Assembly: GCF_030013595.1 (NCBI RefSeq)
Contig: NZ_CP122768.1
Length of the DNA stretch: 64,000 nucleotides
Source of the DNA: Escherichia coli
Lineage (GTDB): Bacteria > Pseudomonadota > Gammaproteobacteria > Enterobacterales > Enterobacteriaceae
Strand: one strand, 5' to 3'
In this document: positions 48,001 to 60,000 of the stretch, piece by piece
Layout of the letters: every line of letters begins with the position of its first letter
How positions within the stretch are numbered: position 1 is the first letter of the stretch
Position numbers: made by a program

Positions 48001-51000
48001 GCAGAACTGATATAATATCTGACCGTCATTTCTCGCTCTTTCTTTTGTTCTGCTATTATTGACCGAAAGGAGACTGCCACGCATAATTTCTTCTGACCTT
48101 TCCATTCAAACGTGAAATCAATAAGTTCATCAGGGACATCGCAAACAATATGAAGACGGATTTCTTCTCTGCCGTGACTCTTTTCACTCATTGCGTAACT
48201 GTCATGCTCTGGATTATTTAATTCTTTCAGTGGGAATTTTTCCTCAAAGGCTTTATTTAGCCGACCCTGATTTCCTTTTACAGCGAATAAATAATCACCT
48301 CCCTGTTTTTGTATCTTCTCTGCAATATCTTTCTGGCAACCCATCGCATCAGTTGTGATGATTTTTCCTTTAATATCCAGCATGTTAAGAAGTTCAGGGA
48401 TAGCTGTAATTTCATTGGGTTTCTCATCCGTCCTGATCTGTCCGATGACCAGACTGTGCATTGTTGAGAACGCACTAATGACATGAATCGCTCCCTTGCG
48501 GCGACTCTTGTCATAAGGATGCCGGAGTGTTTTTCCATCAATTGCGATGACGTCTTTATCAGCTGAAGAATGGCAGTCACGCATCCAGTTAATAAAGCAC
48601 TCGTAAAATTTTGCAGGACTGATACAGGATACAACTCTGGCAATGGTATCGTTAACAGGAATACCATTTTCAAAATCACCATATTGCTTCAAAAAATCGA
48701 GATGTGTTTCCCCAAAATCCTCTATATCTTCCCAGCCTTCTGCACCAGAAATAACGGCATAAATAGTCAACAGTAGAATATCCGACAATTTATATTCCAC
48801 TTTCCAGGCTTGTCTGTAATCGGGGATAATAGAAATATGTTCCATCAATTTTTTAAGTTCCATTTTGTTCTCCTTAATTATGTAAGGAGTATTTGATCAT
48901 GTATACGCAATAAAAAACAGCTTTAGGTAATAAGGAATATATCAATTTTTAAACATAAAATGCGAATTGTCTAGTACAAAAAAGCAGCGTTACGTGATCT
49001 TTCCCTGGTTAATCATGGCTGAACACGATATTACGCCAGAAGTCACCATTTCCAAAACACAGCGCCGCTATAAAGTCGGCTATGTCAGAGCCCGCCACCA
49101 GGACCGCACAACCGGTATAGCCCGGTATTATTCACAACACCCCAGCCTGCACCTGAAGGGCGACTGGCTGAAAGAGGCCGGATTTGATACCGGACGGGGT
49201 GTCACGGTGAAGATTTCGGAGGGGTGCCTGACCATCATCGCTGACAGTGACGAGGTGCAGGAACTGCGGGAGGAACTTTATCAGGTTAAACAGGTGGTTA
49301 AGGGGATGCGGAACGGGATGTTTAGTATGCTGGACGAAAGCTAAATAATAAAAAAGCCGGGAAGATCTTATCTTTCCCGGCCATCTTGCCATACATTAAT
49401 TATTTATGAATATAATATAACTGAACATCATATTCATTATCACTTAAAACTATTAGTCGATCAGGAGATGTAAATGCTAATGAAAGATCATATGTTTCAT
49501 TTATCGAAAACAAACTCAATATGAAATTTGAAAAATTTTCGACATGAAGAGATATGCAAACATCTCCATTATAGAATATATTGCAAAGAATATCTTTTTT
49601 CACATTCAGTGTGCTTTCAACATCTCTCGCTAGATCATTAATATTTAAAGGTAAATTGAAAACTCTCCTTTCAATAATATTATCGGTTTTATTTATTGCC
49701 ATTAGCATTTCTCGATGCCACATGAAGTCATTCTTACGTAAGAATGATACATCAAAGGAAGTGACACCATTTAATTTAGAAGCATAATCTTTTGCTCTAA
49801 TTAAATTTAATTTATCTTCAAGGCTAATTTTCATAATATATATGATGATCCTTAGTTACAGGGTCATTGATCTACTGATATCTATCACTTTTGAAATCGT
49901 ATGTTCTAGGATCAGCGCCCGGTTTAGGTTGTCCTGCATGTGCGTGAGGGCCAGGAGCCCTAGGATCTGCCGTGTGCTCGACTACAACTTTCTTACGTCC
50001 GTAGGCATCCGTATATTCATAATATCGCCCATGAGACCCTAAATCTTCCGAATATTTATAATTTGTTTGTCCCCTTCTTCTAGGATCATTTCCAACTGTC
50101 CATTGCCTATTAGGTTGCTGTGAACGAGGTATGCCCGCAAGATCTTTTGCTTTATTTAGTGCCTGACGACGGTTTCTTAATTCACCACATTTCAGACCAA
50201 GCGGATCTATCCAGCTTGCTGGATTAGGCGCGTAAGCATACAGGTTCAGCCCGCCCGCCAGCCCTATCGGATCCGTTACCATGAACCGCCCGACATCCGG
50301 ATCATAGTACCTGTGCAGATTGTAGTGCAGCCCCGTTTCCCTGTCGAGGTACTGTCCCTGGTAGCGCAGGTTCTGCTCCACCCCGCCGTGGTCCTTCTCC
50401 TGTATCGTGTTACCCCAGACCTGATACCCCGTCTCCCACACGATTTTCCCGTCGCTGTCCGTCATCTCTTCCGGCGCGCCGTTCACATCCGTGTGAAAAT
50501 ACAGTATCCGGTTCGGGCCCTCTTTGCCCGCCTTATCCACCCGCGCCAGCGGTTCATAACTCCCCGGGTCCCTGTAGATGTACAGGCTGTCTGTTCCCTC
50601 CGGCCTGCTCTCCTGCGCCAGCCGCATTCCGTCCCATAAAAATTTTGTCCGGTTGTACGGTTTACCGTCAGGACTGATGTGCTGTTTTTCCGTCCGCCTC
50701 CCCAGCGCATCGTACACATACCGGTACGTCCCCCGCGCTGTCGTCACTTCCACCATCCGGTGTTCCGCATCATAACGGTAACTCTGCGTGCCGCTCCGCC
50801 CCTCCTTTTCCACCGCACGGCCAAATTCGTCGTAACGGTAGTGCACACCACGGTAAGACATCAGCCGGTTGAACGGCACCACGCTGTTTTCTGCCGTGGC
50901 CCTTTCCCCCGCGCGCCGCGCCAGCAGGTTTCCCGCCGCGTCGTACTGCCAGCTCGCCAGATACCCCTCATCCTCCGAGCGGCACGCCGTGATGCGCCCC

Positions 51001-57000: not shown

Positions 57001-60000
57001 CTGTAGCTGCAAAACTCATAATTAATCCTTTTAACTAGAAATGGATAAGTGCTAATAAGAAATCTTACAGAGAATAAAATATGCAATATATTCGTAGCTG
57101 GCATAAAACATCTCAATACTTATGCGTGCTACTGAAGATACTATCAACCATATATGCCTTGAAGAATGCACCGTCATGTTAACCTGGTGGAAACATTCAC
57201 CTAAAGTACATTAATAAAACTAATAAAATTATTTAATTTTTTATTTGATATGATTATCATCAAGTCTTAAAATACGTTCTCCGGTTCTAATTATGCTAAA
57301 ACCATAGTATTCTTTTTTACTTCCGGAAGAGAGCATATATTTCCCGATATACATAACATCTGAAGATAGCTCACTTATATCAATACATACGGGTTCGAAC
57401 TGACCTGTCACTCTTTTCAACTTTATTGCATTGCCATATTTACCTTCATATAAAACATAATTTGAAATAATATTCCCATCGTCTGGTTTTGAACAAATCT
57501 GTCCGTCTTGCAAATATACACTACCGGGTAACAATGGGCGAACATAATCACCAACAGTGCATCCCGACAAAAAGAAAAACAAAAAGAATCTCTTCATATG
57601 ACACCCGCAGGAAATAAATTAAGCACCTTTTTGTATTTTTCCGATAGAGTGTTCACTGATTCAGTTGTATCACCTACATAGTTAACATTTGCCAAATCAG
57701 CCACCAGTCCATAGTTAATTAATAGCCAATAATCAGCAACTATAGATGCTTGTTGTTCCATGGAATAAGAAGAAATTGACTGTAAATTAAGATCGTAATG
57801 ATAATTTGCCGCCCAAGAAAATAAACCACGCAACTTAACTGCATACCCTTTCTGATATTGCCAAACATGCATCATTTCATGAATAAACAAGTGAGAAGCA
57901 CCTGCTACTGTTTCACGATCACCAGGCATTGCTTGCGATGAATAATCTGAACTATAAACAGCATCAGGATAATACATTTCCCCGTTTGGGGTCATCGCTG
58001 TTCTTTCCCCTTGACCAGGCAAATATTTTTCATTGTGGATCCATACCTTGCTATAATCAATTGTATTCTCAAAAATCGATCTGGCCAATGTTAATTCACC
58101 AGATGTCATTCTCCTTAATGACATATCCTTTCCCCTGGAAATAATATCTTTCAGATAAAACACAAACGCCCTTTGATGTTCAATATTCCCACTTTATACA
58201 GTATTGATGACATCATCTTCATAGAAAATAAAATCAAAGCAAGTTATCAACGTTTCCCGTTATGATTTCTTAACATTAATTCTCAGCATTTTTATTAATC
58301 TATCTTCAATATCAATAACCGATGCAAATGATTACGCAGCTAACATAATTCTCATCAATTGATTAATGTCTGTAAACGCTACCGCCCCACCCTGATATCT
58401 TAATCTGCACATAGCAATCTTAACGTTATGCCCCATACATTAGTAATGTAAATTAAGAATTCGGAATATATCAAATTCACTTCATAAATTAATATCGGGA
58501 ATGATATACACATTAATTATAATGAAGTAATGTTTTAAGAGTTGTAATGACCATGGAACAGGACTAATTCCAGAAGCTCCTGTTGGGCAATAGCGCGTTT
58601 ATCATCCTACATGCCTCTTACATTTTTTAGCCTTTTCTTTAACGTCAGCAATTGGCTCATTTAATCAGCAATTGTATTGGTATTTGGCGTATTACCCCTG
58701 AAACCCGTCATGTGCTAGCACCTCACTATTCAATGAGCCAACCACGCCAGTGTCCACTGCAACCACTGGCGTTCAGAGCGACGAACGAGTGGCGCAAGAG
58801 TAGGACTGCCGTCGGGCATCATCAAACCAATAGTGGTTGTTTCCGTCAAAATTTCATCAGGTTGCTATTTTGTTGCCGGCCGCCTTTATCCCCACATATT
58901 TATAGCGGGATTATTTTGCATCGTTACACGATAAAAGGTAGGATTCTGCGCCGACAGTTATACCCATAAAGAATAATGGTGAATCTTGTCATCGCCAGGA
59001 TGAATAAACATTGTTCATGGCAACTTATATGACTTTTTCATTAAAGCAATCAGGGAGAGCAATGAGTAAACACGACACCGACACTTCAGATCAACACGCC
59101 GCGAAACGCCGCTGGCTTAATGCCCACGAAGAGGGGTATCACAAAGCGATGGGCAATCGCCAGGTACAGATGATCGCCATTGGCGGCGCGATTGGCACCG
59201 GCTTGTTTTTAGGCGCGGGAGCCCGACTGCAAATGGCGGGTCCAGCACTGGCACTGGTTTATTTAATTTGTGGCTTGTTTTCGTTTTTTATTCTGCGTGC
59301 ATTGGGTGAGCTGGTGTTACACCGCCCTTCCAGTGGCAGTTTTGTCTCTTATGCCCGTGAGTTTTTAGGAGAGAAAGCCGCTTACGTTGCAGGCTGGATG
59401 TACTTCATCAACTGGGCGATGACGGGGATTGTCGATATTACCGCCGTTGCACTGTATATGCATTACTGGGGCGCATTTGGTGGTGTACCGCAGTGGGTCT
59501 TTGCGCTCGCTGCGCTGACCATCGTTGGCACCATGAATATGATTGGTGTGAAATGGTTTGCCGAGATGGAGTTCTGGTTTGCGCTTATTAAAGTGCTCGC
59601 CATTGTGACCTTTTTGGTCGTGGGTACAGTGTTCCTCGGTAGTGGTCAGCCGCTGGATGGCAACACCACTGGCTTTCATTTAATTACCGATAACGGCGGC
59701 TTCTTCCCCCACGGTTTGCTACCTGCGCTGGTGTTGATTCAGGGCGTAGTGTTTGCTTTTGCCTCCATTGAAATGGTGGGTACAGCTGCCGGAGAATGTA
59801 AAGATCCGCAGACCATGGTGCCTAAAGCGATTAACAGTGTGATTTGGCGTATTGGCCTGTTTTACGTCGGCTCCGTGGTGTTGCTGGTTATGTTATTGCC
59901 GTGGAGCGCGTATCAGGCGGGGCAAAGTCCGTTCGTGACGTTTTTCTCTAAACTGGGTGTGCCGTACATCGGCAGCATTATGAACATTGTGGTGCTGACC

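Follow-up and report, generated by a model that had tools for sequence, protein, structure and literature searches.

Class I prePAAR effectors of type VI secretion systems (T6SS) belong to the Rhs family, carry one transmembrane (TM) region N-terminal to the PAAR domain and work with an Eag chaperone (Ahmad et al. 2020, PMC7773334). According to secondary accounts, Escherichia coli has orphan islands of the type vgrGO1-eagR-rhs-ct-cti, in which vgrG is followed by a DUF1795 gene, a PAAR-Rhs gene with a variable toxin and an immunity gene, and which lie outside the T6SS core cluster (Ma et al. 2017, via PMC6730261 and bioRxiv 10.1101/2024.03.05.583533); both sources report vgrGO1 and eagR as necessary for T6SS delivery of E. 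coli Rhs-CT effectors. A further relevant family is represented by the C-terminal domain (CTD) of Pseudomonas aeruginosa VgrG2b, a periplasm-acting antibacterial metallopeptidase neutralized by PA0261, stand-alone cargo homologues of which occur in Enterobacteriaceae with lipoprotein immunity genes downstream (Wood et al. 2019, PMC6899460). We analyzed a stretch of 64,000 nt of E. coli DNA (contig NZ_CP122768.1 of assembly GCF_030013595.1; hereafter the window), which carries on its minus strand, between ansP and the ydcC H-repeat, what is very likely a copy of the known vgrGO1-eagR-rhs-ct-cti type of auxiliary T6SS cargo island with its Rhs effector gene reduced to a pseudogene.

The kind of element is already known, the vgrGO1-eagR-rhs-ct module having been published and near-identical loci carrying RefSeq annotation. 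With the islands of Ma et al., as the secondary accounts describe them, the window shares gene order and location away from a core cluster but has an Rhs gene broken by two amber codons; its toxin is of the Tox-HNH-EHHH family, which may or may not be among Rhs-CT1 to CT10, and the likeness is drawn from architecture. It likewise resembles Salmonella Rhs1-SciW and P. protegens RhsA-EagR1 (Ahmad et al. 2020) in the AARxxDxxxH motif, single TM region, Rhs cage, C-terminal toxin and DUF1795 gene directly upstream. Unlike these effectors, its ORF (open reading frame) is discontinuous, its Eag protein is only weakly similar to the Salmonella class I chaperone SciW (6XRB/6XRR, E ~ 2e-3), and its two PAAR tetrapeptides stand some 170 residues apart, with a charged low-complexity linker in the stretch between them.

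A preliminary description, made from the sequence alone, had read the locus as a complete vgrG, chaperone, prePAAR-Rhs and immunity island at positions 49400-57019. The four co-oriented ORFs are where it placed them, and they do form an auxiliary vgrG/Eag/class I prePAAR-Rhs/immunity module outside any T6SS cluster at the position of K-12 rhsE, but the island is neither complete nor so short: the rhs frame holds two in-frame TAG codons that the relatives lack, and a metallopeptidase and lipoprotein pair that had been overlooked takes the island up to about 58124. From about 49400 to 58124 it encodes two effector/immunity pairs (Table 1). The minus-strand ORFs between 49400 and 58163 are, in order of transcription, of 189, 118, 664, 150, 1111, 415 and 144 aa, with an operon-like spacing on the single strand: a 4-nt overlap, gaps of 221, 50 and 18 nt (the 50-nt gap parting eag from vgrG and the 18-nt gap parting it from rhs) and a final 11-nt overlap. 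G+C content is 60-66% in the rhs core and 31-38% in the toxin tip with the 144-aa gene (34% for that gene) and in the two genes upstream of vgrG, a base composition typical of an Rhs element. A few promoter-like sites matching 9 of 12 consensus positions lie upstream of the metallopeptidase gene and the consensus scan found no terminator-like site after the 144-aa gene; we regard this promoter and terminator scan as uninformative.

Table 1. Position, strand and description of island genes and adjoining features in the window
Feature	Position	Strand	Description
Metallopeptidase effector candidate, stand-alone	57594..58124	-	176 aa with the ATG start that PGAP annotates in relatives
Lipoprotein, candidate immunity protein for the metallopeptidase	57241..57597	-	118 aa; 4-nt overlap with the effector stop codon
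vgrG (tssI) spike gene	55025..57019	-	664 aa, no internal stop; TIGR03361, TIGR01646
Eag-type chaperone (DUF1795/DcrB)	54522..54974	-	150 aa, intact; Pfam PF08786
rhs, first piece (codons 1-1111 and amber 1112)	51168..54503	-	prePAAR, TM region, PAAR, DUF6531, most of the YD-repeat shell
rhs, second piece (codons 1113-1543 and amber 1544)	49872..51167	-	Same frame; remaining shell, RHS core end, PASWIDPLGL, truncated Tox-HNH-EHHH
Former last 15 rhs codons (INDPVTKDHHIYYEN) and natural stop	49824..49871	-	Now beyond the second amber; from alignment with three relatives and read-through translation
Candidate immunity gene (rhsI)	49400..49834	-	144 aa, intact; 11-nt overlap with the natural rhs end; identical to WP_000703398.1
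SymE-family toxin-like gene	49015..49344	+	Converges on the immunity gene; distal boundary of the Rhs module; PGAP annotation in relatives
ISAs1-family transposase (H-repeat, ydcC)	47727..48863	-	NF033564, E = 4e-120; 96% identical to the K-12 ydcC region

The Rhs gene and its two amber codons

In place of the 1559-aa Rhs protein of relatives, the ORF list for the window shows two pieces of 1111 aa (54503-51168) and 415 aa (51119-49872). The first interruption is a TAG at 51170-51168, codon 1112 (Q1112, CAG to TAG), where E. coli HCP5S3_I2, Res13-Lact-PER13-34 and VCSW5 all have CAG; it falls within the shell of YD repeats, ahead of both DPxGL and the toxin and well downstream of the PAAR domain. 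The second is a TAG at 49874-49872, codon 1544 (K1544, AAG to TAG), where the same three relatives have AAG; it lies 16 codons ahead of the natural stop and deprives the nuclease domain of its 16 C-terminal residues, the relatives' frame running on for 15 codons (INDPVTKDHHIYYEN) and ending 11 nt inside the 144-aa gene. Both are single-base changes specific to the window. Polarized against these three relatives, the rhs gene of the window has six substitutions of its own: three synonymous, the two nonsense changes and one R319W, inside the PAAR match. When the exact sequences of the products of 1111 aa and 415 aa were looked up, no other assembly proved to have either, so on record the ambers are not a shared lineage marker. 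As sequenced, translation of Rhs ends in the YD shell, and therefore the nuclease can be neither made nor delivered. A continuous polypeptide of Rhs cage, PxxxxDPxGL and toxin is encoded by the ancestral-type allele of VCSW7 (1559 aa), and here it is cut at codons 1112 and 1544.

Read through in one frame, the gene does hold the motifs that the preliminary description ascribed to it, namely prePAAR, a hydrophobic TM region, PAAR motifs, YD repeats, DPxGL and a toxin tip. The prePAAR motif AARQGDALLH occupies residues 7-16 and is followed by a single strongly hydrophobic region at 17-78 (19-residue Kyte-Doolittle windows of 1.9-2.2, with one borderline window of 1.41 at 160-178), so that the AARxxDxxxH motif and single TM region N-terminal to PAAR of class I prePAAR effectors are both present. 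Searches with hidden Markov models supported the DUF1795, VgrG and RHS-repeat assignments and gave weaker matches for PAAR: PAAR tetrapeptides lie at residues 113 and 306, Pfam PAAR_motif matches residues 291-321 (E = 3.7e-4) with a weak second match at 97-118, and NCBIfam T6SS_PAAR_dom reaches 19.7 bits, far under its cut-off of 124. Judged by these matches, a split and divergent PAAR domain would fit. Further along the N-terminal piece Pfam recognizes DUF6531 and at least 10 RHS_repeat matches, and the second piece has further YD repeats, RHS (PF03527) and PASWIDPLGL at residues 1428-1437.

In the rhs core, eight differences are clustered at 50454-50646, where the window agrees with Res13-Lact-PER13-34, and HCP5S3_I2 with VCSW5; the cluster has the look of a short patch exchanged between alleles of rhs by recombination, not of point mutation.

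The toxin tip starts at about 50192, the point at which homology to most other carriers of the island ends. Tox-HNH-EHHH is an HNH/EndoVII-fold nuclease toxin family. The window copy matches Pfam PF15657 at E = 8.9e-9 over model positions 2-59 of 69, whereas a relative with the natural stop matches positions 2-69 of 69 (E = 3e-9), so that only the latter has the complete domain. The tail lost after the second amber holds a His-His pair that may be catalytic.

Spike, chaperone and candidate immunity genes

The vgrG, eag and metallopeptidase genes and both candidate immunity genes have intact frames in this genome, and those for VgrG, Eag, the metallopeptidase and the lipoprotein show no difference from relatives; the nucleotide sequence of vgrG is that of HCP5S3_I2 without exception. 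The 664-aa product, proposed earlier to be a VgrG, matches TIGR03361 over residues 30-541 at 555.5 bits (cut-off 186, E = 1e-166) and TIGR01646 at E = 4e-124, and in other genomes an identical protein is on record with Phage_GPD, Phage_base_V and Gp5_trimer_C. Compared with the VgrG encoded inside the T6SS cluster at the aspV site of HCP5S3_I2, it shows 76% identity over 602 aa, the gp27/gp5 core being nearly identical in places and the last ~120 aa diverging. The 150-aa protein, rightly likened to DUF1795 chaperones in the preliminary description, matches Pfam DcrB (PF08786, formerly DUF1795) at E = 1.1e-18 over model positions 11-126 of 127 and is annotated in relatives as "DcrB-related protein" WP_000141612.1; it has no sequence relationship with the Eag of the aspV cluster. 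A similar VgrG core, a divergent tail and unrelated Eag proteins fit a spike that shares the apparatus but bears its own cargo.

No family match was found for the 144-aa protein in Pfam, NCBIfam or PADLOC. The toxin tip and its gene co-occur in 71 of 5426 complete genomes, at rhsE and rhsC loci, in most of them as a displaced orphan module at the end of the rhsE or rhsC array. That the two travel together, in the usual pattern of Rhs tip shuffling, is the main support for calling the 144-aa gene an immunity gene.

The second pair lies upstream of vgrG. The open frame of the metallopeptidase extends to a GTG at 58163, which gives the 189 aa of the ORF list. The protein had no Pfam, NCBIfam or PADLOC match and was identified by sequence search of the PDB alone: phmmer aligns its residues 16-151 with 6H56, the effector domain of P. 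aeruginosa VgrG2b (E = 1e-20), and its HEMMH with the HEMTH of that structure, the catalytic HExxH being kept. The 118-aa protein encoded next has a lipobox, LSGC, at residues 10-13 and resembles NCBIfam NF045617, "putative T6SS immunity periplasmic lipoprotein" (E = 2.3e-7; 30.9 bits, under the cut-off of 43); PADLOC gave no match for it. The homology, the HExxH and a small downstream ORF with predicted envelope targeting are those of the VgrG2b-CTD family, and with P. aeruginosa VgrG2b/PA0261 and S. arizonae SARI_02727/02726 the pair shares 6H56 homology, HExxH, the small envelope ORF downstream and an adjoining vgrG. In contrast to VgrG2b the protein here is a free one of 176 aa with no VgrG fusion, its activity and target being predicted, and the residue after the lipobox Cys is Thr, where Gly is reported to be frequent. 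In each of the six related loci that were inspected the metallopeptidase gene precedes vgrG. The VgrG2b-type metallopeptidase/lipoprotein pair is a constant companion of this vgrG island of E. coli that seems to have gone unremarked.

Function of the intact form and of the window copy

Homology and published work suggest how the intact form would operate. The Eag chaperone would shield the N-terminal TM region of the prePAAR-Rhs protein, the PAAR domain of which would cap the VgrG trimer, and a T6SS encoded elsewhere would fire the loaded spike into a neighboring cell. There the Rhs shell would release the C-terminal HNH/EndoVII-fold nuclease, cut after PxxxxDPxGL, while the small downstream protein would protect the producer and its kin. 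The VgrG2b-type zinc metallopeptidase would act in the periplasm, with the lipoprotein as its immunity protein, probably riding on the same VgrG. The window copy is best read as an island in decay, its present role most likely being protection against kin that still fire this toxin; provided that a functioning T6SS persists in the genome, delivery of the metallopeptidase may also continue.

No T6SS core (tss) gene lies in the 64 kb of the window, as the preliminary description held and as the colinear annotation of HCP5S3_I2 bears out, and the evidence on an apparatus is drawn from relatives at the aspV site and, in HCP5S3_I2, also at the metV tRNA site, where no T6SS was found. At aspV, HCP5S3_I2 has a T6SS cluster made up of tssA, B, C, E, F, G, H, J, K, L and M together with Tae4/Tai4 and a vgrG-eag-rhs set of its own, but its hcp is interrupted by an amber (CAG to TAG) and its tagK is split by insertion sequence (IS) elements; its island copy has a 1-nt deletion in the toxin domain that shifts the frame. 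Res13-Lact-PER13-34 (O169:H41) has an intact island and an aspV site reduced to tssA, an rhs scrap and an ISAs1 element, and VCSW5 has an amber at codon 516 of the island vgrG. VCSW7 has an uninterrupted 1559-aa Rhs, a 664-aa VgrG and aspV core genes all free of a pseudogene flag save for a partial in-cluster vgrG, so that a close relative still shows the locus undamaged. The earlier thought that the island could be a non-functional relic for want of an apparatus is in line with aspV in HCP5S3_I2 (damaged) and Res13-Lact-PER13-34 (deleted) but not with VCSW7, in which core genes and island are both intact. In the aspV cluster of VCSW7 (4778-6955 of locus L021) it is the in-cluster vgrG that is annotated as partial, the island vgrG at the rhsE site being intact, and this auxiliary VgrG may be a main spike for the apparatus there.

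Several points weigh against the interpretation of the locus as a T6SS cargo island with a dead effector gene. The ambers are known from one assembly, and a base-calling error is possible, yet they are substitutions and not homopolymer indels. The 1111-aa N-terminal product might keep a structural role. Both immunity assignments are drawn only from position and co-inheritance. The apparatus, as said, is known from relatives, and the aspV type of T6SS occurs in 117 of the 5426 complete genomes against 243 with the island, so most carriers must use another type; the secondary sources disagree as to whether T6SS1 or T6SS2 delivers Rhs proteins of this kind.

The alternative that survives best, though we consider it improbable, is that the island is half alive, the 1111-aa product still being bound by Eag and capping VgrG, so that the metallopeptidase is delivered and the nuclease alone is lost. 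The unchanged vgrG, eag, metallopeptidase and lipoprotein genes and the retained HExxH would agree with this, as would the position of the first amber far beyond the PAAR domain. Against it, the shell would be short of its last ~320 residues before the cleavage motif and would be unlikely to close or fold, and the R319W change is radical, specific to the window and situated inside the PAAR match. Moreover, of the three relatives inspected at aspV, two have a damaged apparatus there or have lost it, and the metallopeptidase is tied to this VgrG by adjacency alone.

It is less probable still that the island is fully functional, the TAG codons being assembly errors or being decoded as sense by a suppressor of ambers. 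The remaining parts are intact and match those of relatives exactly, and a Gln-inserting suppressor would give back the wild-type residue at codon 1112. Internal stops in the set follow a pattern that amber tolerance would yield. The window has four, at 1141 (yddB Q86), 40901 (narZ Q1043), 51170 and 49874 (both rhs), and three relatives have another four between them, three in HCP5S3_I2 (yddB W322, hcp at 27389-27874 of locus L008, and an rhs fragment at 5185-6423 of the same locus) and one in VCSW5 (vgrG codon 516). All eight are TAG, five of them from CAG and two in CCAGG Dcm sites. The TAG share to be expected when changes in these genes create a stop is lower, at 0.56 with transitions and 0.31 with transversions; of the ~40 coding differences that separate the window from HCP5S3_I2, 5 are nonsense, against 3.9% expected (P ~ 0.02). 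The TAG excess was noted post hoc and is partly explained by the Dcm sites, which are classical C-to-T hotspots, and by a GC-rich, CAG-rich codon usage that favors CAG-to-TAG change. A suppressor is further opposed by the four Gln tRNA genes of HCP5S3_I2, all with normal anticodons (two TTG and two CTG, in a check for supE/supB-type alleles confined to the Gln loci), and by the lack of any tRNA gene in the window. The genes yddB, narZ, rhs and hcp are dispensable, so their stops can be tolerated with no suppressor, and narZ also has a +1 frameshift that a suppressor could not rescue and that fits ordinary accumulation of pseudogenes.

That the split is a natural two-gene effector, with prePAAR-TM-PAAR and Rhs-toxin ORFs cooperating, can be set aside as very improbable: a small subset of class I effectors is encoded as two ORFs (Ahmad et al. 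2020, PMC7773334) and an ATG-initiated 415-aa ORF does follow the first amber, but the break falls within the YD shell and away from the boundary between PAAR and Rhs, it consists of one CAG-to-TAG substitution seen in no relative, the second ORF shares the frame of the first, lacks a convincing ribosome-binding site and is itself cut by the second amber, and no other assembly on record has either product.

With the Rhs gene of this genome taken as a pseudogene, it should be annotated as such and not as a toxin, and the locus should be seen as one of immunity, and possibly of a metallopeptidase, but not as a nuclease weapon. Motif-only scans for T6SS cargo islands would overcall function at such loci unless the reading frame is checked. 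Close relatives have taken independent hits to toxin, spike, tube or apparatus; we count as independent the rhs ambers and R319W of the window, the toxin frameshift and hcp amber of HCP5S3_I2, the vgrG amber of VCSW5 and the aspV deletion of Res13-Lact-PER13-34. As a speculation to which we give little weight, lineages with the HNH-EHHH Rhs island may have been disarmed repeatedly and independently with both immunity genes kept ("defended but unarmed") and not by random decay, or else the eight TAG codons may reflect an amber-tolerant background or amber-biased mutation. Should selection and not drift lie behind the recurrent knock-outs, the locus would offer a convenient natural case of a weapon lost while the immunity to it is kept.

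Chromosomal site, distribution and flanking genes

The nearest complete genome, E. coli HCP5S3_I2 (NZ_CM149870.1), is 99.9% identical to the window and colinear with it throughout, and its annotation by the NCBI Prokaryotic Genome Annotation Pipeline (PGAP) gives the order yddA...narU-narZ...(yddE, nhoA) yddH-ydcC-[island]-ansP-yncE-pqqU. Between flanks that are 95-97% identical, K-12 has yncG, yncH, a 2-kb rhsE pseudogene, ydcD and yncI at the same ansP/ydcC site. We considered the K-12 pseudogene as an allele of the window rhs and rejected it, there being no useful nucleotide match and 30-40% protein identity; the earlier reference to the rhsE locus and its K-12 remnant is thus correct for the position but not for the gene. 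The K-12 fragment (b1456, with ydcD, yncI and ydcC) belongs to a different Rhs clade, and K-12 lacks vgrG, eag and the metallopeptidase pair. By megablast, the island is present in 243 of 5426 complete E. coli genomes. In some carriers PGAP reports a "DUF6531 domain-containing protein", which we considered as a truncated Rhs and rejected, the gene being a full 1458-aa Rhs with a different tip.

The SymE-like protein at the distal edge matches NCBIfam PRK13605 below its cut-off (E = 4e-13), a homologue matches Pfam SymE_toxin, and PADLOC gave no match. At the rhsE, rhsC and aspV arrays, genes of this family lie antisense and directly behind the tip/immunity modules of Rhs, and in multi-module arrays they do so behind most of the modules: examples are at 2679-2912 of locus L008 (HCP5S3_I2 aspV), 9910-10203 of L018 and 14829-15158 and 20169-20411 of L010, with several in L012-L016. 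In the literature we found no explanation of a SymE-Rhs link, except for a remark on symE beside orphan hcp genes in Pantoea. The transposase gene next to it is an H-repeat, the usual companion of Rhs elements.

Elsewhere in the window, narZ (37775-41516), a cryptic nitrate reductase gene, is a pseudogene, with the amber at codon 1043 and an extra A in an A-run at 41507 that shifts its last codons by +1 and takes the frame past its own stop and on to narY; HCP5S3_I2 has neither change. In yddB (886-3258), which encodes a TonB-dependent receptor, the window has the Q86 amber and HCP5S3_I2 the W322 amber, each genome being intact at the other's site, and such independent knock-outs could be due to chance or to selection against the receptor. 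Behind the ompC-like porin gene, HCP5S3_I2 carries an IS200/IS605 insertion (35478-36182 of locus L004; junction at about 33270 of the window) that is missing from the window, which is otherwise colinear with it, and the two differ by a 9-nt indel between yddM and fdnI, at 26140-26148 of the window.

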